The notes under the pieces: generated by a model
What the model saw: only the letters and a program-made list of their open reading frames with translations
Database searches by the model: none
What the model was told of the DNA's origin: nothing
DNA from: Erysipelotrichia bacterium
Lineage (GTDB): Bacteria; Bacillota_I; Bacilli_A; Erysipelotrichales; Erysipelotrichaceae
DNA length: 24,000 nucleotides
Assembly: GCA_018333955.1 (NCBI GenBank)
Contig: JAGXSD010000042.1
Span: forward strand, 10,629 to 34,628
Direction: 5' to 3'
Position numbers and translations under genes: made by a program
Shown: positions 5,488 through 24,000 of the stretch, in pieces
Position numbering within the stretch: the first letter of the stretch is position 1
Layout of the letters: each line of letters begins with the position of its first letter

Positions 5488-5520
5488 ACGATCACCTTTC
5501 GTTCAGATGATCGTTTTTTT
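5486..5520. terminator. Hairpin terminator shared by convergent genes
   Basis: AAACGATCA (5486..5494) pairs with TGATCGTTT (5508..5516), followed by a T-run to 5520. It overlaps the last codons of the minus-strand gene. Confidence 0.55.
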
Positions 5521-6901: not shown

Positions 6902-6907
6902 ATTCGT

Positions 6908-6916
6908 ATTATACCA
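6908..6916 (-). promoter_or_regulatory. Extended -10 (TGgTATAAT) 6 nt upstream of the ATG at 6901, a leaderless-mRNA candidate
   Basis: Minus strand reads TGGTATAAT-acgaat-ATG, with no SD nearby. Confidence 0.4.
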
Positions 6917-6941
6917 TATCCTTTTTTGTGTTGTTTTCTAC

Positions 6942-8639
6942 TCACATCATGATTCTAAGTAATCCAAGTGTAATCACCCCTACTAGAAACAAAAGTGTAT
7001 ACTTCCAGCCCATGGATAAAAATTGAGTGGGTTTAAGTCTTCCGGCATTAAGTACAACAAGGTGAGTTTGATATCCTAATACATTCATAAATGAGGCACT
7101 TGCTAAGATGGCAATCATGAGCACAAGCACTCTAAACTCAACTTGTACCACGTCATTAAGCATTGCACTAAAACTTAACATCATGGTGGCTGCAACGCCA
7201 TTATTCATAACTTCAGTAAACATCATGGTGAGAAGCGCTATTGAAATCACAAAAGCCCAAAGTGGAATGTTTGTTAAAAATGAACCTAAATGATGACTGA
7301 GTTCTGCTTTAATGATTGGTGCTTGAAACACATGAGCCAAAACAAGTCCAGCATACAGCGACAACATTAGTTTAGGCTGTGATTCCACCTTAAGTGCTTT
7401 AAGTGACATGTCTTTATTGAGAACACTAAGCACAAGCAATATTGGCATGGATACCACATAGGGAACCCATTGAAATACACCCCCAATAATCGCAAAAACA
7501 AACAACACTGAAATAATCGTATTTTTGAAAGTAATTTTATCTGAAACACTATGACGTGAAACTTGTTGGAAAGCAGGATGATGTAAATCATCCTTGGCAT
7601 GCATGACAATAAGTACGGTATCCTTGGCCTTTAAGATGACATCTTGATATGTTCTGATTAATGGTTGACCATATCTTACAATCCCTACAATAATCCCATG
7701 AAGTTGATCTTTAAGTTTAATATCCTTAATGCTTTGATGAAAGTCTTGAATCACCATCGCCTCAACAAGATGAACTTCATCCATGACAGATTTCGATTCA
7801 ATCAAATCTAATCCGCTAAACTGCGTAAGGTGATGAAATAAAGCAACATTACCTCCAAAGAATAATTGATCATGAGCATGCAGGATGGTGTGTTCATTAA
7901 GTGGAAATACAGTTTCACCATGTCTTAATATCAAAGTCGCATACGATTGATTAAGATGCTGTGTGCTTGCTTCCTTAAGCGTTAAACCAATCAAAACTGA
8001 ATTTTCATTGATTTCAAATCCAATAAGATGATCGTGAAGTTGGGCATAGGTTACTTGAACTTGAGTCGATTTAGTTTTTCCTAAATCATGAAGTAACAAT
8101 AAGGTCGCTATCATGGTTAAGGGGAAAGCAAACACTCCAGTCTCAAAAAATCCCAGTGGTGGATATTGATGTTCGATTAACCAAGCATTGACTAATAGGT
8201 TTGTACTTGTCCCAATGAGGGTCAACATCCCTCCAAAAATACTGGCATACGATAATCCAATCCACCATTTGTGATGCGTCGTCTTGACCTTCTCATGAAT
8301 CATTGGAAGTAAAATCATGACCAAGGGAATGTTATTGATGACTGTGGAAAGTGTGATAATCAAGCAAAGAATTAAACTTGGATGAACACTGGCCACAGCT
8401 TTCATTTGAATCTTATAAATCCAAGGTTGACGCTTAATCACTCCACTCATGAGCACTAGAAAGAAAATAGTGAGTAAAGAAGGATTAAAGAGAAGGTTCC
8501 ACCAACTTATTAATGGAATCCACCCAATGAATGTGAAAAGCAGTGCGCTCACAAGCAAGAGTAAATGAGGAGGAATATTTTTAATATTCATCCATGCAAT
8601 CATGACAATAAAGTATATAAAGAGTCCTAGTAAGTTCAT
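6942..8639 (-). CDS. SLC13/ArsB-NhaD-superfamily anion permease with two central TrkA-C (RCK_C) domains (565 aa)
   Basis: Two membrane halves flank two soluble repeats (GFEINENSVLIGLTLKEAS...ILRHGETVFP...LHAHDQLFF and VEAMVIQDFHQSIKDIKLKDQLHGIIVGIVRYGQPL...ILKAKDTVLIV), which are typical TrkA-C inserts. Confidence 0.6.
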   Translation of the reverse strand: MNLLGLFIYFIVMIAWMNIKNIPPHLLLLVSALLFTFIGWIPLISWWNLLFNPSLLTIFFLVLMSGVIKRQPWIYKIQMKAVASVHPSLILCLIITLSTVINNIPLVMILLPMIHEKVKTTHHKWWIGLSYASIFGGMLTLIGTSTNLLVNAWLIEHQYPPLGFFETGVFAFPLTMIATLLLLHDLGKTKSTQVQVTYAQLHDHLIGFEINENSVLIGLTLKEASTQHLNQSYATLILRHGETVFPLNEHTILHAHDQLFFGGNVALFHHLTQFSGLDLIESKSVMDEVHLVEAMVIQDFHQSIKDIKLKDQLHGIIVGIVRYGQPLIRTYQDVILKAKDTVLIVMHAKDDLHHPAFQQVSRHSVSDKITFKNTIISVLFVFAIIGGVFQWVPYVVSMPILLVLSVLNKDMSLKALKVESQPKLMLSLYAGLVLAHVFQAPIIKAELSHHLGSFLTNIPLWAFVISIALLTMMFTEVMNNGVAATMMLSFSAMLNDVVQVEFRVLVLMIAILASASFMNVLGYQTHLVVLNAGRLKPTQFLSMGWKYTLLFLVGVITLGLLRIMM

Positions 8640-8645
8640 AGTTTG

Positions 8646-8654
8646 ATTATTTCA
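8646..8654 (-). promoter_or_regulatory. Extended -10-like TGaAATAAT 6 nt upstream of the ATG at 8639, a leaderless candidate
   Basis: Minus strand reads TGAAATAAT-caaact-ATG, with no SD. Confidence 0.3.
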
Positions 8655-8705
8655 AAAAAGTATCTAAGAGTTTTAGAAATTTTTATCGTTTGATTTGTGA
8701 AAGAA

Positions 8706-9155
8706 TTAGAAATTTGTGATATTTTCATGCTTTAAGAGCACTTTCTTTAAATCTAATCCACTTGAAAAACCACCTAATCCATTGCTAGCAAGCACTCGAT
8801 GACATGGCACCACAATTAAAACAGGATTTTTTGAAATGGCTTGTCCCACGGCACGTGAAGCTTTGGGTTGTCCAATCATTGTTGCAATCTCACCATAAGT
8901 CTTAACTTCTCCAAAAGGGATGGACTGCAATGCTTTAAAAACACGTTTTTGAAACTCAGTATGATCAAATGCAATGAGCCAATCAAAACTAGTTTTGTGG
9001 CCATGCTCATACGCTTTTAAGTCCTCAATCCAACGTATATGACTTGGATCAATCACAATGTCCTGATGCTCAACACGATTTAAAGAACTGACTTGTTTCT
9101 CGTCCGCAATTAGCTGAAATGTTGTCCCTAAGAAGGGAAATGTACTTGTTTTCAT
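8706..9155 (-). CDS. ogt: Methylated-DNA--protein-cysteine methyltransferase (Ogt/MGMT)
   Basis: IPFGEVKTYGEIATMIGQPKASRAVGQAISKNPVLIVVPCHRVL contains the PCHRV active-site motif and a DNA-binding helix-turn-helix. Confidence 0.9.
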   Translation of the reverse strand: MKTSTFPFLGTTFQLIADEKQVSSLNRVEHQDIVIDPSHIRWIEDLKAYEHGHKTSFDWLIAFDHTEFQKRVFKALQSIPFGEVKTYGEIATMIGQPKASRAVGQAISKNPVLIVVPCHRVLASNGLGGFSSGLDLKKVLLKHENITNF

Positions 9156-9161
9156 GTCAAT

Positions 9162-9170
9162 ATATTAGCA
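9162..9170 (-). promoter_or_regulatory. Extended -10 TGcTAATAT 6 nt upstream of the ogt ATG, a leaderless candidate
   Basis: Minus strand reads TGCTAATAT-attgac-ATG. The only SD-like GAGGAA lies about 20 nt away. Confidence 0.4.
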
Positions 9171-9308
9171 CATTTCCTCTTTTTCATATTAAGGAGTTCG
9201 TTTCTTTCTCATTAAAGGTGTCGATTCATCACTCGATAAGACTTTAAAGAGTGGAAATTAATCGCATTTAAGAAACGAAACAGGTACAATGATGTTAGTA
9301 CCATAAAA

Positions 9309-9322
9309 TGTGAAACATCACA
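9309..9322. promoter_or_regulatory. TGTGA-N4-TCACA inverted repeat in the leader of the ICMT-like/crtP operon
   Basis: aaaTGTGAaacaTCACAaaGGAG lies directly after -10-like TAAAAT (9304..9309) and before the RBS (9324..9328). Confidence 0.3.
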
Positions 9323-9334
9323 AAGGAGTCAATC

Positions 9335-9913
9335 ATGCCTTTCTTTTCATTTGAAATTCATAACATTCTTTTTTATATCATTACTATTTTGTGGAATCTA
9401 GAATTTCTAATCTTTAGATCAAAGTATAAAGGGAATAACTACTCAGATAAACAATCCTTCAAAACTATTTTAATCGTAATTGTTACCATTATTGCAGGAA
9501 CCATTGGTTATAATCTCTTAGGTCTATTCACTTTACCTGAATATACCTATGTGTATTTTAATTATGCAGGGATAACTTTATATACCATTGGCATTATTTT
9601 GAGATACAGTGCAAGTATCACTTTAGGACGATATTTCACTCGCAATGTGGAGGTGTCTTCTAATCAAGAACTCATTTCTCATGGTCCTTATAAACTTTTA
9701 GCTCATCCTCTTTATTTAGGGTTATTCCTACTAGTATTAGCCGTCCCAGTGTATTTTGGGCAGTTAGTGTGGATTTTTGGGGCAATATTCTTTTTTGGAC
9801 GTGTCATATTGAATAGAATGAATAGTGAAGAAAAAGCACTAGAAGCATCTTTAGGAGATACTTATGTTAAATGGCGTTCAAAGCGTTATCGTTTTATTCC
9901 TTGGATGTATTAA
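9335..9913 (+). CDS. Isoprenylcysteine carboxyl methyltransferase (ICMT/PEMT)-family membrane methyltransferase
   Basis: About 5 TM plus the C-terminal block ELISHGPYKLLAHPLYLGLFLLVLAVPVYFG, characteristic of the ICMT/phospholipid methyltransferase family. AAAGGAG RBS. crtP follows 9 nt downstream. Confidence 0.7.
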   Translation: MPFFSFEIHNILFYIITILWNLEFLIFRSKYKGNNYSDKQSFKTILIVIVTIIAGTIGYNLLGLFTLPEYTYVYFNYAGITLYTIGIILRYSASITLGRYFTRNVEVSSNQELISHGPYKLLAHPLYLGLFLLVLAVPVYFGQLVWIFGAIFFFGRVILNRMNSEEKALEASLGDTYVKWRSKRYRFIPWMY

Positions 9914-9922
9914 AGAGGTCAA

Positions 9923-11410
9923 ATGAAAAAGAAAGCGATTGTACTTGGAGCAGGTCTAGGTGGACTTAGTGCCGCAATCTCATTGGCACAACTTAATGAA
10001 TATGAAATTCATGTCTTAGAAAAAAATTCACATCGTGGTGGTAAACTTAATATCATTGAAAAAGATGGATTTAAGTTTGATTTGGGTCCTTCAATTGTCA
10101 CTATGCCTTATATCTTTGAGAAACTTTTTACCATGCACGGAAAGCGAATGGAAGATTATCTAATCTTTGAGCCTGTTTTTCCTCATTGGAGAAATTTCTT
10201 TGAAGATGGCACCATCTTAGATATCACTTCCACACTTGATGAGATGCTTAGTAATGTAACTTTAACATCTAAAGATTTAGAAGAACTTAAAGCTTTCTAT
10301 GATTACAGTGAAAAATTATACAAGTTTTCCAATGCGGTTCTCTTTGAAAATCAAAGTGAGCGAAAACTTGATACAATGAAACACTATCCACTCACACACA
10401 TCATTTCTGATTCAGACATGTTCCATACGATGGATGAAGGAGTAAGAACGTATATCTCTAATCCATATCTTATTGATATTCTTAATTATTTCATTAAATA
10501 TGTCGGTTCCTCTCCTTATGATGCCCCTGCAGTTTTAAATCTTCTTCCTTATATTCAATGGAAGTTTGGATTATGGTATGTGAAAGGTGGATTATTTGAA
10601 ATCTCGAATGCCTTGACAACCTTAGCCCATGAACTAAACATTACATTCCATCATAACGTTCAAATTGTGGATGCTAAGATGGATTCAAAAAAGATAGCAG
10701 CTCTAATTAGTCAAGATGGTACCCATTATGAAGCCGATTTATTCATCTCAAACATGGAAGTCATCCCATTCTATAAATTCATTACCAAAGAATCTTCATC
10801 ATTTCTTAAACCTTATGAAAAGAAATATGGTCCCGCATGTTCGGGTTTTGCACTTCACTTAGGCGTGAATAGAACATATCCTCAATTGGCTCATCATAAC
10901 TTCTTTTATTCTAAAAACTCAAAACAAAACTTTGATAATATCTTTCATCACAACATCCTGAATGAAGATCCTACGATTTACTTAGTTGCTCCTATGAAAT
11001 CTGATCCAGATTTAGGACCTCAAGGAAGTGAAATCATTAAGATTCTTCCTCATATTCCAGTAATCGATCCAAATCATCCATTCACAGATCAAGATTATGA
11101 AACCTTTAAACACCATGTCCTTGATAAACTAGAACGTATGGGACTGACTGATTTAAGGAAGCATATTGTGGTGGAAGAAACATGGACACCTCACACCATC
11201 TTAGAAGCTTATCAATCTAATCAAGGATCTATCTATGGGGTTGTCAGTGATAAAAATAAAAACATGGGATTTAAGACACCCAAGTTTAGTTCTAAATACA
11301 AGAACTTATTCTTTGTCGGGGGAAGTGTAAATCCTGGGGGTGGTATGCCTATGGTGATTCTTTCTGGTCAACAAGTTGTTGAGCAAATCAAAACCAAAAT
11401 AAAAGAGTGA
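9923..11410 (+). CDS. crtP: CrtP (CrtNb)-type 4,4'-diapocarotenoid oxygenase, FAD-dependent CrtI family
   Basis: GAGLGGLSAA dinucleotide-binding site. Long blocks match my recollection of S. aureus CrtP: DLGPSIVTMPYIFEKLF, ISNPYL..L.YFIKYVGSSPYDAPAVLN, ISNMEVIP, YPQLAHHNFF, DPTIYLV, LDKLERMGLTDLRKHI, FFVGGSVNPGGGMPMVILSGQQV. Confidence 0.8.
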   Translation: MKKKAIVLGAGLGGLSAAISLAQLNEYEIHVLEKNSHRGGKLNIIEKDGFKFDLGPSIVTMPYIFEKLFTMHGKRMEDYLIFEPVFPHWRNFFEDGTILDITSTLDEMLSNVTLTSKDLEELKAFYDYSEKLYKFSNAVLFENQSERKLDTMKHYPLTHIISDSDMFHTMDEGVRTYISNPYLIDILNYFIKYVGSSPYDAPAVLNLLPYIQWKFGLWYVKGGLFEISNALTTLAHELNITFHHNVQIVDAKMDSKKIAALISQDGTHYEADLFISNMEVIPFYKFITKESSSFLKPYEKKYGPACSGFALHLGVNRTYPQLAHHNFFYSKNSKQNFDNIFHHNILNEDPTIYLVAPMKSDPDLGPQGSEIIKILPHIPVIDPNHPFTDQDYETFKHHVLDKLERMGLTDLRKHIVVEETWTPHTILEAYQSNQGSIYGVVSDKNKNMGFKTPKFSSKYKNLFFVGGSVNPGGGMPMVILSGQQVVEQIKTKIKE

Positions 11411-11426
11411 GATATCACTCTTTTTT
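11401..11426. terminator. Bidirectional hairpin shared by the convergent crtP and 11415..11933 genes
   Basis: AAAAGAGTGA-GATA-TCACTCTTTT. The stems contain both stop codons (TGA 11408..11410 on plus, TGA 11417..11415 on minus). Confidence 0.55.
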
Positions 11427-11933
11427 AATCCAAGGACTGAAGTATATAGGACTATGTGAAGCTACTTTATAAAATAAAACAATGATAAGCGCAATAAAAT
11501 CCCAAGTCATTACATAGACAAACAAATCACTTTGATAAGCTTGTCGATACACACTCCAATCTCCAAAAATCAAGGCCCATAGCAACATTAGGGTTAGAAT
11601 GATATCGATTGATCCTAATAGAAAAAATGAATATTTTTTTAAAGGCTGAGGTTTACTTCTAAAAAGAAATTCTAAAGGAAATAATACAAATCCACCTAAT
11701 CCAAATCCTAATAAAGTAAGCATACTTTGCCACCATGGCTTCTTATCATTGATAGAAAGAATTAAAAAATACATTGGAATAAGTCCTAAAGCATTAAAGA
11801 CAAACCATAAGGAAGGATCAAGGTTTAAACTAAACACTTGATTTAAGAAATCACTTGATGCTCCATTGAGTGAAGCATTGATTGTAACCATCACTAGCAC
11901 AATCCAAATCAATAGTGGCACTCGTCGTTTCAT
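11415..11933 (-). CDS. Uncharacterised small membrane protein (172 aa, about 5 TM), last gene of the ABC1-kinase/CrtN-paralogue operon
   Basis: Its start overlaps the upstream stop (ATGA, 11933..11930). It is hydrophobic throughout. I recognise no family. Confidence 0.6.
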   Translation of the reverse strand: MKRRVPLLIWIVLVMVTINASLNGASSDFLNQVFSLNLDPSLWFVFNALGLIPMYFLILSINDKKPWWQSMLTLLGFGLGGFVLFPLEFLFRSKPQPLKKYSFFLLGSIDIILTLMLLWALIFGDWSVYRQAYQSDLFVYVMTWDFIALIIVLFYKVASHSPIYFSPWIKKE

Positions 11934-13417
11934 TTTAAGTCATCCTTCAAAAGTTGGGTACTGATGAGTGCTGATTGATAGATGGTGGGTAATCCACTTC
12001 CAGGATGAGTTCCTCCACCCACCAGATACAAATTAGGGATATCATTAAAGCGATTATGAGCTCTAAAATACAATAATTGATCAAATGAATGAGCCATATT
12101 AAACGTTGCTCCTAAATAAACCCCGAAATCATCACGCCAGTCAAATGGTGTAATGACTTTCATGGCTTGTATATGCTTTGTGATATCTTTACATCCAGCT
12201 CGCTCCTCTAAAAATTGAAGTACACGTTGAGTATAGTCTTCTTTAAGAACGTTCCAATCAATATCAGCGAGTGTATTAGGAACAGGAACTAAGACATAGA
12301 GTGCGCTATGCCCAACAGGTGCTATTGAAGGGTCAAGCTTCACAGGATTATGAACATAGAAACTTGCATCTGGGGTTAATACTAATCGCTCAGTCATATC
12401 GAGTACATTACTGCGATAATCTTCGGAGAAGATTAGATTATGATGATGAAGATGCTCATATTGAGTATCAAGACCTAGATAAAGCATAAAAGTTGAACAC
12501 GAATAATTCTTTTTACTAAGCTTTTTATTGTTCCATGAAGGACGATGTTTTTCATCGACTAATTCTTGAATACTAGTTGCAAAATCTCCATTAAGAATCG
12601 CTCCATCCACATCAATCTTCTGCTCATTAACAATTATTGAAGTCACTCTTTGATTCTCAATTTCAAGTTGATTGACACGCGCATTAAAGTGAAAGGTTGC
12701 CCCAAACGATTCGGCTTCTTCCTTCATGGCTTGGGCTAATGCATTTAATCCTCCCTTCACATGAAATAAGCCATAGGCATGTTCCATGTAGGAAAGAATT
12801 GAGAATGCACTAGGGCACTGCCATGGTGACATACCTAAGTATTTTGCTTGAAAAGCCATTGCATATATAAGTTCTTCGTCCTTAAAGAAACGTTGTAATC
12901 TTTGGTATAAAGATCTGAATGGATCTAGGTATGGAAGTCCTGTCACAACATCAGGATGTAAATAATCACTAATCTTAGTGAATGGCAGTTTCAAAACCTT
13001 TGAAATCGCACTAAATCGTTTGCCTTCTTCTTTCAGATATTGATCATATCCTCGCTCATTTCCTGGGAAAACACGAGATATTTCTTCTCGCATTACACTT
13101 GGATTGCTACTAGGATAGATTTTCTTATGCTTAAAAATCAGTTGATATAAAGGATCTAGTGGGATAAGGGTGACTTTATCGTCAAGTTTTCGATTCACCT
13201 TTGCAAAGACTTCATCCAGTAAAGGTTTATATAAAAAGAATGTTGGTCCAATATCAAAATGGTAGACATCCTCCAATGTTAAGCGAGCGTTGCGACCTCC
13301 TACGTGAGGTTTTGCTTCATACACATGGACATCGTATCCATCATGGGCTAATAACATCGCCGCTGCAAGTCCACCTGGACCAGCTCCAATAATCGCAATC
13401 TTTTTCTTACTTTCCAT
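11930..13417 (-). CDS. Third phytoene-desaturase-family FAD oxidoreductase (CrtN/CrtI paralogue, possibly CrtNc-like), 495 aa
   Basis: IAIIGAGPGGLAAAMLLA...VGGR Rossmann motif, FDIGPTFF, KGGLNALAQAM, and C-terminal LYLVGGGTHPGSGLPT. The likely start MESKKK at 13417 is preceded by AAGGAG 7 nt upstream and overlaps the kinase gene by 11 nt. Confidence 0.75.
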   Translation of the reverse strand: MESKKKIAIIGAGPGGLAAAMLLAHDGYDVHVYEAKPHVGGRNARLTLEDVYHFDIGPTFFLYKPLLDEVFAKVNRKLDDKVTLIPLDPLYQLIFKHKKIYPSSNPSVMREEISRVFPGNERGYDQYLKEEGKRFSAISKVLKLPFTKISDYLHPDVVTGLPYLDPFRSLYQRLQRFFKDEELIYAMAFQAKYLGMSPWQCPSAFSILSYMEHAYGLFHVKGGLNALAQAMKEEAESFGATFHFNARVNQLEIENQRVTSIIVNEQKIDVDGAILNGDFATSIQELVDEKHRPSWNNKKLSKKNYSCSTFMLYLGLDTQYEHLHHHNLIFSEDYRSNVLDMTERLVLTPDASFYVHNPVKLDPSIAPVGHSALYVLVPVPNTLADIDWNVLKEDYTQRVLQFLEERAGCKDITKHIQAMKVITPFDWRDDFGVYLGATFNMAHSFDQLLYFRAHNRFNDIPNLYLVGGGTHPGSGLPTIYQSALISTQLLKDDLK

Positions 13418-14621
13418 ACACCATCTCCTTAAACTCCTCAATAAATTGACCCACTTCTTTCATAAGCACAGAATCAGGATTTCCTTTAAGTACAATACCA
13501 TCCATATACATATGAGACTTAATAATCGCAAACATGCCTTTCTCAAATTCCATGCCTGATTCAACCCCTAATTTAATCGTCTGCATCATCTTTTTAGTTA
13601 ATGATTCCTCAGACACACTTTTCCCTTCAAAATCTTTGTATAGTTCTTTTAAACCTTCAATATAGCGATCAAGTTTCTTGCCTTCAATGCCTTTAAACGC
13701 CATTTCATTGAGTGAGCGCGCACATCCTTCATAGTTAGCATTGGATAAATTTGCCATAAAATTGAATAAACCAAATCTAATTTTGTCATCCACATGGGCA
13801 ATCGCGCCGGTATCAATAAAGTAAAATCGGGAATCCTTGTATATCATATTTCCTGGATGTAGATCCCCATGAAATGTCCCACTATGATACATATAAAAAC
13901 CATGAAGGCGGAATATTTCAAGTAAATCATCATTGCTTAGCACCTTTAATGGAAGAATCGCATCCACGGTTGGACCATCTAAAAACTCAGAGACAAGGAT
14001 TTTTTCACTGGATAGAGATTCATAGATTTTTGGAAATCCTAGTCGAGATAAATCAAATTTGTCTTTGTTTTGATAATATATTTCCCTAAGAATTTTGCCA
14101 TGAGCAATCTCATTGCGTAAATCAAGTTCGGCTAAAGTATACTCTTTAATATATTCAATGATTCCAATTGGATCTGCCACTTTAGCTAGCTTAGGATAAA
14201 AGAAGATTGCAATCCTCATTAAACGATCAAGTTTACGAACATCTTTTTCAAAATCTTTGGTGAAATCTTGTTTAATGATTTTTATAACAACCTCATCTTT
14301 GTTTTTAAGCCGTGCGCGATGAACTTGCCCTACCGAAGCACTGCCGATAGGATTTGGATCTATCCATTCAAATTGCTCTTGCCAAGACGCATCTGTAAAA
14401 TCATGAATAAGTTTAAAAACATCTTCTGAAGGAAGAGGTAGCGTTGAACTATATAACTGGGCTAAATGAGTGCATTGTTCATGGCTCAAGAAATCAACTC
14501 GAAGAGCGAAGGTTTGAGCTATTTTGACAGCTAAAAGACCTTTGCGCTGTATCGCTTCAAGGTCTGCTTTCTTCTTTGAAAAAATCATGCTCATAAGATG
14601 AATAAAACTAATTGCATTCAT
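13407..14621 (-). CDS. ABC1/UbiB/AarF-family atypical protein kinase, soluble (404 aa)
   Basis: VKIAQTFALRVDFL (KxGQ-like), IGSASVGQVHRARL, VVIKIIKQ (catalytic Lys), ELDLRNEIAHG, ILVSEFLDG, FHGDLHPGNMIY and YFIDTGA. The start is ATG 14621, with AAAGGAG 7 nt upstream; the track's TTG at 14645 is less likely. Confidence 0.8.
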   Translation of the reverse strand: MNAISFIHLMSMIFSKKKADLEAIQRKGLLAVKIAQTFALRVDFLSHEQCTHLAQLYSSTLPLPSEDVFKLIHDFTDASWQEQFEWIDPNPIGSASVGQVHRARLKNKDEVVIKIIKQDFTKDFEKDVRKLDRLMRIAIFFYPKLAKVADPIGIIEYIKEYTLAELDLRNEIAHGKILREIYYQNKDKFDLSRLGFPKIYESLSSEKILVSEFLDGPTVDAILPLKVLSNDDLLEIFRLHGFYMYHSGTFHGDLHPGNMIYKDSRFYFIDTGAIAHVDDKIRFGLFNFMANLSNANYEGCARSLNEMAFKGIEGKKLDRYIEGLKELYKDFEGKSVSEESLTKKMMQTIKLGVESGMEFEKGMFAIIKSHMYMDGIVLKGNPDSVLMKEVGQFIEEFKEMVYGK

Positions 14622-14680
14622 GCCTAGACTCCTTTTAAAAATCAACTAAATCAAGTGTATCATATTCATTGAGCCCAATT

Positions 14681-14713
14681 AAACAAAACACCTGTCGAAC
14701 TATTCGACAGGTG
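14681..14713 (-). terminator. Strong rho-independent terminator after the heliorhodopsin gene
   Basis: Minus strand reads CACCTGTCGAA-TAG-TTCGACAGGTG (14713..14689), an 11-bp perfect stem, followed by TTTTGTTT. Confidence 0.8.
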
Positions 14714-14719
14714 AATGAA

Positions 14720-15505
14720 TTATGGTTGCATGGCCCCAAAGAGGACTAACCAAGCTAGGACTGATTTTGCGGCTAAAGAAAGCACAATGTAGGTTCTTTC
14801 CCCATACAAATAATCTTTCCATTTTCCAACACCTAAATATTGAAGAATCATGTTAATTGGGAATGTATTAAATGCTACAAAGTAAGTTCCAACAATCGCC
14901 CAAACAAACCAAGGAATTTGATCCAGTGTTGCACTTGATCCACTCATGTACATAATAATAGCAATCCATGGTGCTAATCCCGCAACACTACCCCAAATAA
15001 ATGGTCCCCAGTTGACATTCTTTTTATCGACTCCTGCATTCAGTAATTCCATATCTAATCCGAATAAGTTCATGGATGCATTGATTAGGAAGATTAAGAT
15101 GAGGGTCACCACATCATAAATACCAAATAATGTTGCGATTAATACAATCATAATGGATGATGATAATGCATATTCAAACCATCTGAATTGGTTTACACCA
15201 CGCTTTAAATCATTGGTATAACGATCTTTTGATAATACAATGAGAAAGTGAGCAAAAGCAGAAATCAGTAAGAATGATGAGACGAGGACTGCGAACGGTA
15301 AATCAAATAAATCTTTAGTGGCCACTGCTAGACTCATGGTGGTGACGTCAAAGAATTGATAGGTTTGTGTGATGGTTGGTGTAAAGCGTGCTAAACGTTC
15401 AAATCCAATCGTCGCTAGAAATAACATCCCTAATCCTTGAACTAAATGGAAGAAACCCATAATTAAATTAAATCGTCTTAGTTTGAAAAAATTGTCTTGA
15501 GTCAT
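14720..15505 (-). CDS. Heliorhodopsin (7-TM retinal-binding photoreceptor with inverted topology), 261 aa
   Basis: Blocks match the heliorhodopsin family as I recall HeR 48C12: GFFHLVQ, AFAHFLIV, FRWFEYALSSSIMIVLIA (counterion Glu), INASMNLFG, and GERTYIVLSLAAKSVLAW (Schiff-base Lys, codon 14767..14765). A KLRRF basic cluster precedes TM1. The start is ATG 15505, with AAGGAGAAGG 5 nt upstream. Confidence 0.9.
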   Translation of the reverse strand: MTQDNFFKLRRFNLIMGFFHLVQGLGMLFLATIGFERLARFTPTITQTYQFFDVTTMSLAVATKDLFDLPFAVLVSSFLLISAFAHFLIVLSKDRYTNDLKRGVNQFRWFEYALSSSIMIVLIATLFGIYDVVTLILIFLINASMNLFGLDMELLNAGVDKKNVNWGPFIWGSVAGLAPWIAIIMYMSGSSATLDQIPWFVWAIVGTYFVAFNTFPINMILQYLGVGKWKDYLYGERTYIVLSLAAKSVLAWLVLFGAMQP

Positions 15506-15530
15506 AACCTTCTCCTTTTCGGTTAAGACT

Positions 15531-15559
15531 ATTTTAGATGAAGTCATCCATGAAAACAA
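15531..15559 (-). promoter_or_regulatory. Candidate dedicated promoter of the heliorhodopsin gene
   Basis: Minus strand: -35 TTGTTT (15559..15554), 17-nt spacer, -10 TAAAAT (15536..15531). It is preceded by a short GTTAAG-GCA-CTTAAC hairpin (15574..15560) that overlaps the upstream stop codon. Confidence 0.45.
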
Positions 15560-15569
15560 GTTAAGTGCC

Positions 15570-16253
15570 TTAACTATTAAAAATCATTATTTTCATATCA
15601 AGTCCTTGTCTATTTTGATAAAAATCTTTCGGAATGTATGTCGCACCTTGATGATGAATAAGAAAAGCAGCACATGCCAATGACGTCGCATCAATGATAT
15701 CGAGATGGTAATACTGAGGAAAGGAATTTAGAGCATGTTCTAAATCTTCTTTCAACCAAGTAAAGTGATGAACTAAACAATCGATTCTTTCTTGTTTACC
15801 TAATGGATTATGTTTTGAGTATGTGCAAGGTTTCCCTTGTAGTCTTTCAAAGATGAGTTCTGGAAAGGATTCATGAATATTTAAGTGAGGATGTTTTAGT
15901 ACAAAATCATTCACTTCTCTAATAATAGGAATGATATGAAAAGATTGCTTGCTTAAGCCTTTTTTAAGAATATCTCTATTGATATGGTTTGCTTCCTCAT
16001 AACTTTGAGCATTTAAGGTTTGTAATGCGGGAACATTAAATACACTGGAGGCTCTTCCCTGAACCAGTTTTCTAATCAAAGGTTCAGGTCTTTGTTCGTT
16101 AGTTGAACTTGGACATCCAATCGGAACATCAATCAGAATTAGATCATTGTAATCATGAATGCTTTCTAATGACTTTTCTACTTTGATGATTAATCTTTGA
16201 TTTTGAATGATAGCAAGCATATATCCTTGTTTACATCCATCTATACCCATCAT
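15570..16253 (-). CDS. DUF429-family protein (predicted RNase-H-like fold), 227 aa
   Basis: MMGIDGCKQGY...LIDVPIG...RASSVFNVPA...SFHIIPIIREV...ESFPELIF fits the DUF429 pattern (GIDG.., D.PIG, SSVF..P, E.HPE..F). AGAGGTG lies 7 nt before ATG 16253; the track start at 16286 is less likely. Confidence 0.6.
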   Translation of the reverse strand: MMGIDGCKQGYMLAIIQNQRLIIKVEKSLESIHDYNDLILIDVPIGCPSSTNEQRPEPLIRKLVQGRASSVFNVPALQTLNAQSYEEANHINRDILKKGLSKQSFHIIPIIREVNDFVLKHPHLNIHESFPELIFERLQGKPCTYSKHNPLGKQERIDCLVHHFTWLKEDLEHALNSFPQYYHLDIIDATSLACAAFLIHHQGATYIPKDFYQNRQGLDMKIMIFNS

Positions 16254-16325
16254 AAGGGACACCTCTTGACTTGTGTAATTGTTCATGATTTAATAACCAC
16301 AGTATACTAGAAAAAGAGGTTGAAG

Positions 16326-16799
16326 ATGAATCAAATACTATATGGTGTAACTTTCACTTTATTAGGAATTTCTGCACTCAAAGATCTTAAAAAGACAAAA
16401 CAAGCCTTAATGAAAGCTTGGAAAGGATTTGAAGGAATGCTTCCTCAGATTCTTACGATTATCCTAGTTATTGGAATTATCATTGCGGTGTTATCTCCTG
16501 AACAGATTGCTTCAATTATGGGGGAACAATCAGGTTGGTGGGGAATTATGTTAGCTTCACTCATTGGAGCAATCACTTTAATGCCAGGATTCGTAGCCTT
16601 TCCACTTGCAGCTACATTACTTAATAACGGAGCAGGACTATCGCAAATCGCAGCTTTTATCTCTTCACTTATGATGGTTGGTTTTATTACCCTTCCACTT
16701 GAAATTCAACACTTTGGAAAGAAAGCTGCATTACTTCGCAATGGATTAGCATTCCTATTCTCATTTGTCGTTGCGATTTTGATTGGAGTTATACTATGA
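16326..16799 (+). CDS. Predicted permease, first subunit of a two-gene split permease (UPF0718/ArsP-like type)
   Basis: Hydrophobic 157 aa (LIGAITLMPGFVAFPLAATLLNNGAGLSQIAAFISS). Its stop overlaps the next start (ATGA at 16796). It resembles the two-component membrane permease pairs annotated in streptococci. Confidence 0.5.
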   Translation: MNQILYGVTFTLLGISALKDLKKTKQALMKAWKGFEGMLPQILTIILVIGIIIAVLSPEQIASIMGEQSGWWGIMLASLIGAITLMPGFVAFPLAATLLNNGAGLSQIAAFISSLMMVGFITLPLEIQHFGKKAALLRNGLAFLFSFVVAILIGVIL

Positions 16800-17335
16800 A
16801 GAAACAACCATTCATTAAACGATATCAATCTGTCATCATTATGATTGGAGTTTATACTATCCTTTATTTCATGTCAGCATCCATCTTTTCTACTGCCCTT
16901 AGTGGTTCAAGACAATCGCTTATTGAGTTATTAATTGTGGTGCCACCCATCTTTATTTTGATTGGACTACTTGATGTTTGGGTTGAAAAAGAGAAAATGA
17001 TGAAACTCATGGGTCCTGAGTCAAAAGGAACTGGCATCCTCATTGCCTTTTTACTCGGCTCACTTGCAGCTGGTCCACTGTATGCAGCATTTCCAGTGGC
17101 CATCACGCTTCTTAAGAAAGGATCTTCATTTAGAAACATTCTTGTGCTATTAGGAGCCTGGTCCACAACCAAGATTCCGATGTTGATGTTTGAATCTGCT
17201 TCAATGGGGTTAAACTTTACAATCACTCGCTTTATCATTAACTTGTTTGGGATTATGGCCATTGCATTAATCTCTGAAAAAGTGCTAAGTGAAAAAACAA
17301 TGATAAGTATTGGTGAGCGCTATAGTGAATCATAA
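16796..17335 (+). CDS. Predicted permease, second subunit of the split permease pair
   Basis: Hydrophobic 179 aa (LLGSLAAGPLYAAFPVAITLLKKGSSFRNILVLLGAWSTTKIPMLMFE), translationally coupled to the previous gene. Confidence 0.5.
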   Translation: MKKQPFIKRYQSVIIMIGVYTILYFMSASIFSTALSGSRQSLIELLIVVPPIFILIGLLDVWVEKEKMMKLMGPESKGTGILIAFLLGSLAAGPLYAAFPVAITLLKKGSSFRNILVLLGAWSTTKIPMLMFESASMGLNFTITRFIINLFGIMAIALISEKVLSEKTMISIGERYSES

Positions 17336-18962: not shown

Positions 18963-18990
18963 CAAAATAAAAACCTCAAAATTGAGGTTA
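18963..18990 (-). terminator. Rho-independent terminator of the crtM operon
   Basis: Minus strand reads AACCTCAA-TT-TTGAGGTT followed by TTTATTTTG. The stop codon 18990..18988 lies in the stem. Confidence 0.6.
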
Positions 18991-19785
18991 GCGAACAAAG
19001 GTATGAATAAGTGGAGTAAATATGGAAATGGTAATCATATTTGATAGAAAATTGACCATATGATTATCCATCCAAACGACACCCGAAACAAGTATATCAT
19101 TGGAATGTTGCATCATCTCAACAAGTTCATGACTGGCGGTTTTAAACTTAGCTTGGAATAATTCTCCTAGAATTGAATCCATAATTGATCCACCAAATCC
19201 AGCAAGTGTGGTTAATGAAAACAATGTTAAAGTGAGAAATGTCCATCCCGAGTAAGAAACTAAGACAGGGAGTGCTATGAGTGTAATAAAGAGTGATCCA
19301 AACCAAGAAGCAATAAGCCCTAACCAAGTCACTCCACCAGATAAACCTGATTGAATATGATTGCGTTTGATAAGCGTCCAAGGGGTCTCATAGGATAATG
19401 AACCTATCTCTGATGCCCATGTGTCCGACGTTGCGGCAGCCATGGATATGATACCAAAACATAAAATCCAAATCGAAGGACTTAAGTAATACCAGACACT
19501 TGCAACCCCTAGCATACTTCCATTCGCCACAACATTCACCCAAGATCGTGGCTCATGATCTTTAACATAGGGTTTAATATTGGGTATAAATTGAACAAGC
19601 ACTTTGCTGATGAGTAATGATGAAAACAAGAATGACATCATCAAAATATAAAAGATTGGATGTCCAAATCCTAAGACAGTAAAACCAAGCACAAAAGAAG
19701 CAATCGCGCCTGAAAGAGTTAATTTATTCTTTATGAATAATCCCCAACTGATGAGAAGATTAAAAATCAATGAAAACAGAAGCAT
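18988..19785 (-). CDS. DUF92/TMEM19-family membrane protein (family of the plant VTE6 phytyl-phosphate kinase)
   Basis: VVANGS, SDTWASEIG, SGLSGGVTWLG and GFGGSIMDSILGELFQ match the DUF92 conserved blocks. Its start lies 1 nt after the upstream stop. Confidence 0.75.
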   Translation of the reverse strand: MLLFSLIFNLLISWGLFIKNKLTLSGAIASFVLGFTVLGFGHPIFYILMMSFLFSSLLISKVLVQFIPNIKPYVKDHEPRSWVNVVANGSMLGVASVWYYLSPSIWILCFGIISMAAATSDTWASEIGSLSYETPWTLIKRNHIQSGLSGGVTWLGLIASWFGSLFITLIALPVLVSYSGWTFLTLTLFSLTTLAGFGGSIMDSILGELFQAKFKTASHELVEMMQHSNDILVSGVVWMDNHMVNFLSNMITISIFTPLIHTFVR

Positions 19786-19786
19786 A

Positions 19787-20446
19787 TTACACCAACATCA
19801 ATAGATAGCTTAATAGTGAAGCACCTAAAGGTAAAGTAATATTATCAAACCCATCTTTAGTGTAAAGTTCAAGTGCTGCACTTACAACACCAACACAAAG
19901 TGCTTTGACACCCCACCATGCATCACCCATAGAAGCGAACACAAATCCTGAAATCGCGAAACCAAAGAAAAATACCATCAGAGATCCTTCAATGGATTTA
20001 AAACCAGATCCAATCTTAATCTTTGTATTTCCAAACTTCTCTCCCACAACCGCTGCAAAGCCATCACCATACCCCATGGTGAGTATTCCAATCGCTCCAA
20101 TGGCTTCTAATCCACGTGTGAAGGTCACAAGCGTTAAGATAAGCAAGGATATGACATAATACACCGTGCCTAAGTCTTTCTTTGAACCATCACGCTCCAT
20201 AGCTTTAAAGGTTTGATTTTTATATGAATACGTATTGATGATCACAAAAGCAGCTGGAGTAATGGCTGCCATCCAAACATTATCAAAAAAGAACATCGCA
20301 ATAAACCACCAATTCGACACCATAATATGAATAAACTTTCGTGAAGATTCTCCGTTGAAGATTTTCTTCGCAGAAAGTACAGTACTAATCCCAATAATCA
20401 CAAAGATATACGCAAATGAGACGATAAGACCATAAACATTATTCAT
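19787..20446 (-). CDS. CTP-dependent polyprenol kinase family protein (VTE5 phytol kinase / dolichol kinase / farnesol kinase family)
   Basis: SRKFIHI, GYGDGFAAVVGEKFGNTKI....FKSIEGSLMVFF and DNITLPLG are the family signature blocks. Its start overlaps the crtM stop (ATGA 20446..20443). Confidence 0.75.
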   Translation of the reverse strand: MNNVYGLIVSFAYIFVIIGISTVLSAKKIFNGESSRKFIHIMVSNWWFIAMFFFDNVWMAAITPAAFVIINTYSYKNQTFKAMERDGSKKDLGTVYYVISLLILTLVTFTRGLEAIGAIGILTMGYGDGFAAVVGEKFGNTKIKIGSGFKSIEGSLMVFFFGFAISGFVFASMGDAWWGVKALCVGVVSAALELYTKDGFDNITLPLGASLLSYLLMLV

Positions 20447-21303
20447 AAACTGAGTTGTGTCCTTTCTAAGGTTGCTTTTTTAATCAACTGATGAACTTGA
20501 TTTTGTAATGCAATGAAATCCTTAACTTTACAGCGCGTACTTAAACAATCATAGTGATTTTCTCTTACTGCATTAAGGATACCTCGATAGTATACAATAG
20601 CTTGCGTAATCGCAACAAGAGCATCTTGATCATAGTATTTCAAATCTTCAATCGCATGATCATAAAACTTAAGGGCTAAACTCGCAAGATGTTCCCACAC
20701 CTTTATGAATGAATCATTCACTTTCTTGTCTTGAATGGCATGAATAATCTCATCATTGAGGAGCGATTGCGGTAGATAAATTCTGTTTTTTTGATGATAA
20801 TCCTCACCAACATCACGTAGTATGTTCGTAATCTGCATAGCATATCCTAATTCAATGGCACTTTGTTCGATACGTTGATGATGTTGGGTTGCTAGTATTG
20901 GTAATAACATAAGTCCTACACTACTCGCCACATGATAACTATACTTTAATAATGCTTCTTCATCCTTGATGCCTTGAAAGTGGTTGTCCATTTCTTGACC
21001 AATAATCATATCTTTAAATGGTGTTAATGGAATATTAAAGCGTTGTATGGTATCTGACAAAGCCCATAATATCGGATGATTGTCATTCATGGATTCTAAG
21101 TGATCGAGTGCCGAAGCAAATTCATGAAGTTTGTCTATATCTTGAAGTTCATCTATTGCATCATCCACTTCACGACAAAAACCATACACTGCGAATACTC
21201 CTTGACGTTTATGAAGGGGTAGATCTTTAAACGCCATATAGAAGGATTTAGAGTGTTTTTGAATAATCTTTTCACATCGGTGATAGGCTTGACTCAATTT
21301 CAT
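20443..21303 (-). CDS. crtM: 4,4'-diapophytoene (dehydrosqualene) synthase, squalene/phytoene synthase family
   Basis: KHSKSFYMAF, VYGFCREVDDAID (first Asp-rich motif), and NILRDVGEDY (second). The size and blocks match S. aureus CrtM as I recall it. The C30 versus C40 assignment rests on the co-occurring CrtN/CrtP. Confidence 0.8.
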   Translation of the reverse strand: MKLSQAYHRCEKIIQKHSKSFYMAFKDLPLHKRQGVFAVYGFCREVDDAIDELQDIDKLHEFASALDHLESMNDNHPILWALSDTIQRFNIPLTPFKDMIIGQEMDNHFQGIKDEEALLKYSYHVASSVGLMLLPILATQHHQRIEQSAIELGYAMQITNILRDVGEDYHQKNRIYLPQSLLNDEIIHAIQDKKVNDSFIKVWEHLASLALKFYDHAIEDLKYYDQDALVAITQAIVYYRGILNAVRENHYDCLSTRCKVKDFIALQNQVHQLIKKATLERTQLSL

Positions 21304-21360: not shown

Positions 21361-22899
21361 ATGAAAAAAGTGATTATTGTTGGGGCTGGAATTGGTGGCC
21401 TTGTAAGTGCTATAAAACTGAAACATCATGGATATGATGTCACGATTATTGAGAAGAATGAGCGAATCGGTGGAAAGATCAATCAAATAAAAAAAGATGG
21501 ATTTACCTTTGATATGGGTCCTACGATTGTGATGATGCCTCAACTTTATGATGAGGTTTTTAAATATGTCTTTCGAAATCCTGAAGACTACTATACAAAA
21601 ACTCAACTCAATCCAATTTATAATGTCTATTTTTCTAAAGAAGACAAAGTTGAGGTGAATACAGATTTAGTGCATCTTACCAAATTTCTTGAAGGCATGA
21701 GTGAACAAGAAGCATCTGGATATTTTAACTATCTTAATGATATTTATCGCCGATACATAATTGCGAAAGAACATTTCTTAGAAAAAACATTTAATAAGGC
21801 GAGTGATGTTTTAAACTTTAAAACCCTTCTTAATGGATTTAAGTTAAAAACCTTTGATACTGCATATCATTCAGTATCTAAGTTTGTGAAGAATGAAAAA
21901 CTAAGAAAACTACTCAGTTTTCAAACGTTATATATTGGAATCTCACCTTATGTAGGACCTTCGATTTACTCCATTATTCCTATGGTTGAAACTTTATATG
22001 GTATATGGTTTTTTAAAGGTGGAATGTATGGCTACATTCAAGGACTTGAAAAACTCATTCAAGAAATGGGTATAAAAGTCATCTTAAATACAACGGTCGA
22101 TGAAATCTTTATTAGTAATTTGAAAGCTAAAGGGGTGGTCATTGGTGAAGAGATCTTATGTGCTGATATCGTGATTAATAACACGGATTTCCCTTATGCA
22201 ATGAGAGAACTGATTAAGAACGAAAAGCATCGCCCTAAATACACCAACAAAAAACTTTCAAACATGGATTACTCATCCTCTGCGTTTATGATGTATTTGG
22301 GTCTAAACAAGAAACTAGATCATCTCAATGTTCATAATTTATACTTGTCCCCAGATTTTGAAGGAAACATCAAAGATATCTTTAGTGCTAAACTACCCCC
22401 TACGCCATCCATGTATTTCTATGTTCCTTCTAAACTTGATGAAAGTCTTGCCCCAGAAGGACATGAAGCGCTATACATTCTTGTCCCTGTTCCTAATCTA
22501 AAAGGATTTCCACACACTTGGGATGACAAACTCATTGCATCCTATCGCAAAGAAATCTTTGATCGCATTGCGAGTGAAAACATTATTGAAAATTTAAGTG
22601 ATCATATCGTCAGTGAAACCATCCTTACACCTCTAGATTGGCAAAAACAAGTTCATGCCCACTATGGAGCAACCTTCGGTCTTGCGCCAACATTAAGACA
22701 AAGTAATAACTTCAGACCTCAACCTATGTTTAAAGGAATCAAACATTTCTATCATACAGGCTCATCAATCCATCCTGGAGCTGGAATTCCAATTGTCATG
22801 ATGAGCGCTCAGTTATGCGTCAATGAAGTTTTAAAATATGATCCTAATGGAGGGTCTTTTGCATGCAAAGTTTATGCACAAGAATATGAAAACGCTTAA
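21361..22899 (+). CDS. crtN: 4,4'-diapophytoene desaturase
   Basis: Blocks match S. aureus CrtN as I recall it: VIIVGAGIGGL, KKDGFTFDMGPTIVMMP, KLLSFQTLYIGISP..GPSIYSIIPM.E, FKGGMYG, YSSSAFMMYLG, LAPEG, IVSETILTP.DW, and HPGAGIPIV. Confidence 0.85.
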   Translation: MKKVIIVGAGIGGLVSAIKLKHHGYDVTIIEKNERIGGKINQIKKDGFTFDMGPTIVMMPQLYDEVFKYVFRNPEDYYTKTQLNPIYNVYFSKEDKVEVNTDLVHLTKFLEGMSEQEASGYFNYLNDIYRRYIIAKEHFLEKTFNKASDVLNFKTLLNGFKLKTFDTAYHSVSKFVKNEKLRKLLSFQTLYIGISPYVGPSIYSIIPMVETLYGIWFFKGGMYGYIQGLEKLIQEMGIKVILNTTVDEIFISNLKAKGVVIGEEILCADIVINNTDFPYAMRELIKNEKHRPKYTNKKLSNMDYSSSAFMMYLGLNKKLDHLNVHNLYLSPDFEGNIKDIFSAKLPPTPSMYFYVPSKLDESLAPEGHEALYILVPVPNLKGFPHTWDDKLIASYRKEIFDRIASENIIENLSDHIVSETILTPLDWQKQVHAHYGATFGLAPTLRQSNNFRPQPMFKGIKHFYHTGSSIHPGAGIPIVMMSAQLCVNEVLKYDPNGGSFACKVYAQEYENA

Positions 22900-23630: not shown

Positions 23631-24000
23631 ATGAACGTTCTAAAAAAAATATACATAACACATGATCAAATAACCTCTTATATAAAGGAATCTTTTCCTG
23701 ATCTTGTTCAACCAAAACACTTGTATTCCCCTTCTTTTGAAGATCTTCAATCTCTTTTATCTCGACTAAATCCTATCCGTTATGGTCAAGATCGAAATTA
23801 TCTGAATGGTTCAGTGACTCATCTAAGTCGCTATATTAGTAGTGGCCTTCTTTCAACGAGTGAATGTATTGATATTTGTATTCATCACTTTGGACTCGAT
23901 GCTTCAATACCCTTGATTAAACAGCTTGTTTGGAGAATCTATTTTAAGCACAAACTTTTTCATTATCCTCATGCATCTTATCAAAATATCGGCAATTATA
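23631..24000 (+). CDS. Photolyase/cryptochrome-family protein beginning at the FAD-binding helical domain. Only the N-terminal 123 codons are present because the gene runs off the right edge.
   Basis: Absent from the ORF track because it has no in-window stop. Translation reads MNVLKKIYITHDQITSYIKESFPDLVQPKHLYSPSFEDLQSLLSRLNPIRYGQDRNYLNGSVTHLSRYISSGLLSTSECIDICIHHFGLDASIPLIKQLVWRIYFKHKLF... YGQDRNYLNGSVTHLSRYISSGLLS and QLVWRIYF resemble the Y..RN.L.G..S.LSPYL..G.IS and EL.WREF blocks of DNA photolyases. In canonical enzymes those blocks lie about 200 residues into the protein. Confidence 0.5.
   Translation, partial: MNVLKKIYITHDQITSYIKESFPDLVQPKHLYSPSFEDLQSLLSRLNPIRYGQDRNYLNGSVTHLSRYISSGLLSTSECIDICIHHFGLDASIPLIKQLVWRIYFKHKLFHYPHASYQNIGNY

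Follow-up and report, generated by a model that had tools for sequence, protein, structure and literature searches.

Background

Among the described heliorhodopsins (HeRs, or type-3 rhodopsins), TfHeR from the Bacillota species Trichococcus flocculiformis does not pump ions and acts as a regulatory helper, which binds a class II cyclobutane pyrimidine dimer photolyase via R162 and K227 in its cytoplasmic loops (PMC9769723). Zinc-finger HeRs of Thermoplasmatales are flanked by carotenoid and photolyase genes (PMC8612252). Of 448 helR genes surveyed, 173 have co-transcribed neighbours and 275 stand alone (PMC11109279). A preprint (10.1101/2025.11.27.691015) proposes a carotenoid-binding fenestration and reports its motif in 91% of HeRs. 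Our literature search returned no paper pairing heliorhodopsin with Erysipelotrichaceae. Here we describe a helR gene from an Erysipelotrichia bacterium, located at 14720..15505 on the reverse strand of a 24,000-nucleotide (nt) stretch of contig JAGXSD010000042.1 (hereafter the window, to which all positions refer unless another locus is named). The gene probably encodes a functional HeR of an uncultured, Erysipelothrix-like member of the Erysipelotrichaceae, which has its own conserved promoter and terminator and would serve as a conditional, non-pumping photoreceptor in a photoprotection neighbourhood.

Data and comparisons

The comparison set consists of 80 related loci, among them L001-L005; L081-L084 are contigs of the same species as the window. 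Promoters were compared in an alignment of the upstream regions of the window and L001-L005 (six sequences). Neighbouring genes were compared by tblastn of 24 window proteins against the 80 loci and by clustering of 531 neighbouring open reading frames (ORFs). Conservation of residues was assessed among 29 aligned homologues (69-95% identity) and the same alignment was used for structure prediction with AlphaFold2.

Family assignment and chromophore site

The 261-amino-acid (aa) product matches the Pfam family Heliorhodopsin (PF18761) over the complete profile (1-242 of 242; E-value 2.8e-91; 305.6 bits with a cutoff of 26.7), and at E <= 10 Pfam returned no second family for it, hence no Bac_rhodopsin (type-1) match. 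The NCBIfam equivalog NF038020, 'heliorhodopsin HeR', scores 286.3 bits, which is so far above its cutoff of 100 that standard annotation would name the gene correctly. Membership of the heliorhodopsin family is thus as secure as sequence analysis allows. The best matches among solved structures are TaHeR of a Thermoplasmatales archaeon (PDB 6IS6, E-value 4e-53), the HeR of Chromera velia (9VFC) and 48C12 (6SU3 and 6UH3, about 3e-47), and identity to TaHeR and 48C12 amounts to 41-43%. The gene and the codons that correspond to functional residues of these two proteins are:

14720..15505, reverse strand: heliorhodopsin coding sequence, 261 aa, start codon ATG at 15505 with the ribosome-binding site AAGGAG ahead of it
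15448..15446, reverse strand: H20, equivalent to H23 of 48C12 and H23 of TaHeR, histidine pair
15250..15248, reverse strand: H86, equivalent to H80 of 48C12 and H82 of TaHeR, histidine pair
15175..15173, reverse strand: E111, equivalent to E107 of 48C12 and E108 of TaHeR, counterion in helix 3
14767..14765, reverse strand: K247, equivalent to K241 of 48C12 and K238 of TaHeR, Schiff-base lysine

The longest mechanical version of the ORF that ends at 14720 starts with a TTG at 15559 on the reverse strand. This start was rejected, since the TTG is part of a conserved -35 hexamer and the homologues begin at an ATG that follows a ribosome-binding site.

S82, S243, N105 and W109 are likewise conserved in the structure alignments and these residues, as well as H20, H86, E111 and K247, are invariant among the 29 homologues. 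The AlphaFold2 model (pLDDT 80, pTM 0.76) has seven helices, of which the first two are joined by a long beta-hairpin with strands at 44-53 and 58-68. In Foldseek comparisons it reaches TM-scores of 0.88/0.92 to 6IS6 and 0.85-0.90 to 48C12, whereas the best type-1 rhodopsins give about 0.5-0.6 at 12% identity. When the helices are positioned from hydropathy and homology, the loops on the N-terminal side of the membrane hold 13 lysine and arginine residues versus 3 on the opposite side, a distribution that by the positive-inside rule fits an inverted, N-in topology.

An original prediction, made from the letters of the window alone, had proposed a heliorhodopsin rather than a type-1 rhodopsin, with the Schiff-base lysine at 14767..14765, a glutamate counterion, two conserved histidines and N-in topology, and had suggested comparing the Heliorhodopsin and Bac_rhodopsin profiles and predicting the structure. 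All of this is borne out by the profile scores, residue alignments and model described above, the topology computationally. The peptide blocks that it quoted (GFFHLVQ, AFAHFLIV, FRWFEYALSSSIMIVLIA, INASM, GERTYIVLSLAAKSVLAW and KLRRF), which include the segments of both histidines, the glutamate and the lysine, all occur verbatim in the 261-aa product.

Comparison with characterized rhodopsins

The protein shares with TaHeR and 48C12 the family, the seven-transmembrane fold, the long beta-hairpin in the first loop, the Schiff-base lysine, the counterion, the histidine pair and the equivalents of Ser82 and Ser243. It differs from them in Pro216, which replaces an alanine at the fenestration as it does in the eukaryotic Cv06 of C. 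velia, in Met219, which takes the place of Gln213 of 48C12, and in its host, a low-GC Bacillota bacterium.

The fenestration itself is compatible with the carotenoid site defined in the preprint. F169 and F212 form opposing aromatics, S173 and P216 are non-bulky, and G176 and N213 are present; as a sequence motif, this corresponds in 48C12 numbering to aromatics at 162 and 206, a glycine at 169 and small residues at 166 and 210. The protein matches the Cv06 fenestration at each of the F, C/S, G, F, N and P positions and has the same segment FNTFPINM. Cv06 differs in being eukaryotic and in having long insertions; its carotenoid binding is a proposal, and the carotenoids made near the gene studied here are probably acyclic C30 compounds. 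Antenna-bearing type-1 rhodopsins (xanthorhodopsin; Kin4B8, 8I2Z) share the seven-transmembrane retinal fold and the lateral opening and are the best structural matches outside the HeRs, but they are proton pumps that belong to another family, have the opposite topology and align with a TM-score of about 0.55, likewise at 12% identity.

The same motif bears on a possible transport function. Some viral HeRs transport protons, according to the preprint and to another report (PMC12873467), so that a light-driven ion transporter could be envisaged here. This is extremely unlikely, given that the preprint describes the ion-transporting HeR subfamily as lacking the fenestration motif, which is present in our protein, and that TfHeR, from another Firmicute, does not pump.

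TfHeR is comparable in further respects. It is also a Firmicute HeR, it has the same C-terminal MQP ending (read from a primer in the case of TfHeR), it carries basic residues in the second and third cytoplasmic loops, here K161/K162 and K228/K230, and photolyase-related genes lie near both genes. In T. flocculiformis the photolyase is encoded in the same operon, whereas here the photolyase-like genes start 8.1 kb from helR, on the opposite strand, with nine genes in between, and form separate units; helR and a photolyase gene thus do not share an operon. Also the types differ, since one gene encodes a 256-aa protein with a FAD_binding_7 domain only and another a DPRP-family protein, unlike the partner of TfHeR.

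Promoter, candidate operator and terminator

The predicted signals that surround helR are:

15561..15573, reverse strand: perfect palindrome TTAAGgcaCTTAA (TTAAG-gca-CTTAA), candidate operator, which adjoins the -35 hexamer and overlaps the stop codon of the upstream DUF429 gene
15554..15559, reverse strand: -35 hexamer TTGTTT, 3 of 6 positions as in the consensus, invariant in the six sequences
15531..15536, reverse strand: -10 hexamer TAAAAT, TAnAAT in all six orthologous sequences
15512..15517, reverse strand: ribosome-binding site AAGGAG, 6 nt ahead of the ATG; AAAGGAG is conserved in the orthologous loci
14681..14713, reverse strand: intrinsic terminator, 11-bp stem CACCTGTCGAA/TTCGACAGGTG with loop TAG, followed by TTTTGTTT
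14659..14686, reverse strand: promoter-like element of the next unit, TTGTTT-16 nt-TATGAT, located after the terminator, with conserved -10 block TATGATACACTT

Comparison of the orthologous loci indicates that helR carries its own weak -35/-10 promoter, a ribosome-binding site and an intrinsic terminator. The distance between the hexamers is constantly 17 nt in the six sequences, in which the letters of the spacer vary freely. The terminator hairpin (14713..14689), with six GC pairs in its stem, has a folding energy of -20.1 kcal/mol (z = -4.4), in agreement with the 11-bp-stem terminator predicted originally; the stem is kept in L001-L005, and L005 shows a compensatory C-G to A-T change at its base. 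The second promoter-like element precedes a unit formed by the genes for an ABC1 kinase, a CrtI-family protein and a 172-aa membrane protein. Since promoter, ribosome-binding site, terminator and downstream element are all conserved despite near-saturated synonymous sites, an independent helR transcription unit is plausible, and more so than a consensus scan would suggest. No RNA family was found above threshold in the window by Rfam.

The centre of the palindrome is located about 43 nt before the inferred transcription start. The 24-nt block that contains it (15554..15577) is invariant in the six sequences except for a single position (C/G), at a divergence at which synonymous sites are near saturation, and the palindrome itself is invariant in the window, L001-L005 and L081. 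No second perfect copy occurs in the window, nor in any of L001, L004, L015, L081 and L082. A related sequence, TTAA(G/T)(G/T)CACTTAA, is found 63-98 nt ahead of the HeR start in L015, L017, L019, L021 and L022, of which the HeRs are only 73-74% identical and the neighbours are different. Overall the pattern is present in 13 of 80 HeR upstream regions, versus approximately one expected, and in other Erysipelotrichaceae clades this position is occupied by palindromes of another sequence (GCAATTtAATTGC; GTAAAGTaACTTTAC). We infer that HeR promoters in Erysipelotrichaceae are controlled by dimeric regulators: a weak -35 hexamer combined with a palindrome near -43 suggests that the promoter needs a dimeric transcription factor or is under the control of one, and this combination would suit an activator.

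Co-regulation with the carotenoid or photolyase genes was considered and rejected, as no further copy of the palindrome precedes those genes and the other near-matches in the window are imperfect and lie inside coding regions. In L019, a gene divergent from that of the HeR (6309..9374 of that locus, reverse strand) encodes a 1021-aa PAS-PAS-GGDEF-EAL-hemerythrin-GAF signalling protein, which agrees with earlier remarks on c-di-GMP signalling genes near HeRs.

A more specific proposal would be that an unknown, dedicated dimeric regulator that binds the HeR-specific palindrome TTAAG-N3-CTTAA at the -35 controls HeR expression in Erysipelotrichaceae, and that in the present genus the HeR belongs to a photoprotection module with C30 carotenoid and photolyase-like genes, either with the cell's own acyclic carotenoid as antenna or as the sensor by which light sets carotenoid synthesis or repair. 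We regard this as rather unlikely, but if true it would provide a defined regulon and a physiological role for heliorhodopsins in a Bacillota lineage.

Relatives, origin and selection

The nearest genomes are metagenome-assembled genomes (MAGs) of uncultured Erysipelotrichaceae or Erysipelothrix. Erysipelotrichaceae are monoderm Bacillota, and these nearest genomes place the host among them. The identical HeR protein is encoded on 17 public contigs, that of L001-L005 is 93-97% identical, and there are some 4,300 relatives at E <= 1e-20. Relatives at about 70% identity have been binned to Chloroflexi, Saccharibacteria and even diderm groups. For many close relatives (L004, L009, L012, L024, L037 and others) the MAG names (CROMO, HGW, AnMBR) suggest groundwater, serpentinite wells and anaerobic reactors.

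Compared with L001, the protein is 97% and the DNA 84% identical, which corresponds to a dN of 0.036, the lowest among 18 genes compared, a dS of 1.2 and a dN/dS of 0.029. The dS is as close to saturation as that of the neighbouring genes, and GC content is flat over the whole window with no anomaly at helR, by which horizontal transfer of the gene was ruled out. The low dN/dS, the neighbour-like dS and the flat GC content together argue that the gene is native, vertically inherited and under very strong purifying selection.

Carotenoid and photolyase-like genes around helR

The neighbouring genes considered here are:

9335..9913, forward strand: ICMT-like methyltransferase
9923..11410, forward strand: CrtI-family oxidoreductase
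11415..11933, reverse strand: 172-aa membrane protein, no assigned family
11930..13417, reverse strand: CrtI-family desaturase
13407..14621, reverse strand: ABC1/UbiB-type atypical kinase, start ATG at 14621 by the gene calls
15570..16286, reverse strand: DUF429 gene (RNase H-like superfamily), start at 16253 according to the gene callers
18988..19785, reverse strand: DUF92 gene
19787..20446, reverse strand: 219-aa membrane protein
20443..21303, reverse strand: CrtM-type synthase
21361..22899, forward strand: CrtI-family desaturase, divergent from the CrtM-type synthase
23631..24000, forward strand: gene for a 256-aa protein that contains a photolyase FAD-binding domain; the window ends within it and includes its 5' part

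Carotenoid genes thus lie on both sides of helR, as the original prediction had stated when it described the gene as embedded among isoprenoid-pigment genes. The downstream operon (11415..14621, reverse strand) comprises the ABC1 kinase, CrtI-family and 172-aa genes. On the upstream side follow DUF429, a split ArsP-type permease, a membrane protein, a rhodanese-domain protein, DUF92, the 219-aa protein, CrtM and a CrtI-family gene. The 256-aa protein is unusually short, as it has the photolyase FAD-binding domain (FAD_binding_7) without the N-terminal photolyase domain; identical contigs (L081 1..1875, reverse strand) continue with a 134-aa ORF without known family and a 506-aa DPRP photolyase-related protein.

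This arrangement recalls the Thermoplasmatales loci, where phytoene desaturase, amino-oxidase, SQS_PSY and photolyase-type genes surround the HeR and are read as a photoprotection context. Unlike those HeRs, the present protein has no N-terminal zinc-ribbon domain, and the carotenoid pathway appears to be a bacterial C30 (CrtM-type) one without lycopene cyclase, whereas the archaeal loci include that enzyme.

The neighbourhood is common only to L001-L005 and to L081-L084, the contigs of the same species. In the other 75 loci no CrtI, CrtM, ABC1 or DUF429 gene occurs within 10 kb of the HeR. A conserved HeR neighbour beyond lineage-level synteny was sought and not found, the largest cluster being that of a DEAD-box helicase-like gene present in 11 loci of another clade. 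The carotenoid linkage is therefore genus-specific, and not strict.

The coincidence of carotenoid genes and fenestration motif permits another reading, in which the HeR is a light harvester with two antennae and the genus' own C30 pigment occupies the lateral fenestration as second chromophore. It would explain why the gene is located among carotenoid genes, all residues of the site defined by the preprint are compatible with it, and the segment shared with Cv06 is identical. Nevertheless we consider it unlikely: a motif found in 91% of HeRs is not specific to this gene, the carotenoid binding proposed in the preprint is based on structure and docking and not on bound pigment, exogenous ring-bearing xanthophylls are favoured there whereas acyclic C30 diapocarotenoids have no ring to offer the fenestration, and the carotenoid linkage is absent from all 75 other loci.

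Several further observations concern the neighbours only. The ICMT/PEMT-like membrane methyltransferase gene ends 10 nt ahead of the CrtI-family gene and the pair is conserved in L001; that its product methylates a carotenoid acid is only a guess. The 219-aa ORF, which overlaps the CrtM-type synthase gene and is followed by the DUF92 gene, had no Pfam, NCBIfam or PDB match, but it carries GYGDGFAAVVGEKFG, a motif that we take to resemble those of phytol and polyprenol kinases. DUF92 includes the plant phytyl-phosphate kinase VTE6. If the resemblance holds, the 219-aa/DUF92 pair could convert salvaged isoprenoid alcohols to the diphosphate that CrtM uses as substrate.

At 16320..17335 on the forward strand there are two adjacent, overlapping ORFs (159 and 179 aa), both of which align with one and the same N-terminal portion of the ArsP_1 'predicted permease' profile. 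Because this arrangement is kept in L001, L002, L004 and L005, it looks like a genuine two-gene permease, split or with a duplicated half, and not a frameshift. Finally, the contigs with identical HeR differ beyond the MGMT gene (L081 16829..20786, window 5492..8639): L081 has Bac_transf, glycosyltransferase and sulfotransferase genes, whereas in the window and in L082, L083 and L084 a CitMHS transporter gene and then Wzy_C take their place (L083 ends before Wzy_C is identifiable). The difference is a strain-level replacement at a surface-polysaccharide locus.

Evidence against and alternative explanations

A number of results weigh against the proposed conditional photoreceptor with its own promoter and photoprotection neighbourhood. 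The promoter, TTGTTT-17-TAAAAT, has only 8 of 12 consensus positions, which is under the threshold of the promoter scan and therefore was not reported by it, and promoter-like matches in the region show no excess (14 versus 12.8 in shuffles). No terminator separates helR from the DUF429 gene, which is on the same strand and ends 64 nt before the ATG, and read-through from DUF429 into helR is possible. The window contains no transcription factor gene, and none lies next to the HeR in the motif-bearing L015 and L019. The basic residues K161/K162 and K228/K230 lie in the loops that match those of R162 and K227 of TfHeR, an equivalence that is approximate. The carotenoid/photolyase neighbourhood is conserved within one genus-level clade only and even there L005 has neither ABC1 nor CrtI in the interval from the HeR to the 172-aa gene, so that the neighbourhood may be coincidental. 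Finally, neither the window nor 20.8 kb of identical contigs showed a Blh/Brp, carotenoid oxygenase or lycopene cyclase gene.

In this light two claims of the original prediction hold in part. The promoter that it placed at 15559..15531 is weak and escapes the scan, while both hexamers and their 17-nt spacing are conserved in five orthologous loci. Expression independently of the neighbours agrees with the conserved signals and with the second promoter-like element beyond the terminator, and is qualified by the unterminated DUF429 gene.

Those 64 nt also allow DUF429 and helR to be read as a two-gene operon, with the RNase H-like DUF429 protein as functional partner of the HeR. DUF429 is indeed the sole neighbour kept directly beside the HeR in all close relatives, that is in the window, L001-L005 and L081-L084. 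It diverges fast, at 49-54% aa identity compared with 93-97% for the HeR, which gives no hint of co-constraint; the two genes are separated by a conserved promoter and are not paired in any of the other 75 loci, and DUF429 is outside the ten recurrent helR partner groups (PMC11109279). We found no solved relative of DUF429, for which the literature gives RNase H-like superfamily membership only. A functional DUF429-HeR operon is in our opinion improbable, and a helR unit with its own promoter is preferred.

As regards retinal, the synthase is nearest to solved CrtM-type dehydrosqualene synthases, which, given that there are three CrtI paralogues and no cyclase, indicates a C30 pathway. C30 (diapo)carotenoids are acyclic and cannot yield retinal. 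With a local pathway of this type, the cell would have to take up retinal from its surroundings or obtain it by an unknown route. Functional pigments can still be formed by rhodopsin-bearing bacteria in which no retinal genes are known (PMC7734400).

The lack of a local retinal pathway, as well as the groundwater and anaerobic reactors to which related genomes point, could be explained by a light-independent or vestigial protein with a structural or other dark function. Yet a dN/dS of 0.03 and the invariance of K247, E111 and both histidines in 29 homologues argue for a maintained chromophore site, and the photolyase-like and carotenoid genes at the locus suggest that the organism meets light. 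Pigments may also form without known retinal genes. A dark function is very unlikely.

The photoreceptor reading can be outlined as follows. A dimeric transcription factor at the palindrome would control the promoter, or be required for it, by which the HeR would be produced conditionally from a monocistronic message. The protein would bind all-trans retinal, obtained from outside the cell or through an unknown route, and act as a slow-cycling, non-pumping photoreceptor. By analogy with related HeRs, for which photolyase, glutamine synthetase and an ABC transporter are the partners, it may modulate partner proteins through its basic cytoplasmic loops. In this genus the HeR would belong to a photoprotection neighbourhood, together with photolyase-like genes and those for C30 carotenoid synthesis, a placement that suggests a role in the response to light damage.

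Conclusions

The original prediction had regarded the gene as the best candidate in the window for an undescribed light-responsive system, which is not supported. A curated NCBI equivalog exists for the family and several homologues at 70-76% identity already bear the name 'heliorhodopsin HeR [Erysipelotrichaceae bacterium]'. Stand-alone helR genes form the majority (275 of 448; PMC11109279) and carotenoid and photolyase flanks are known (PMC8612252). Carotenoid adjacency is restricted to L001-L005, with none in the 75 other loci, and the C30-type pathway gives no retinal. The HeR is a further member of a known family in its commonest, stand-alone arrangement and adds one member and a few regulatory details rather than a new kind of system. 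Three local features deserve mention, namely the candidate operator, a photoprotection neighbourhood specific to the genus and the absence of a visible retinal source.

The relatives from what appear to be mostly dark habitats pose the question why a strongly conserved photoreceptor should be common there, and how much of this is due to transfer or mis-binning. As the physiological role of HeRs is only partly understood, a well-defined genomic context is useful: this locus offers a clean and strongly constrained HeR, a conserved promoter with a candidate operator by which the regulator could be fished, and testable partners nearby.

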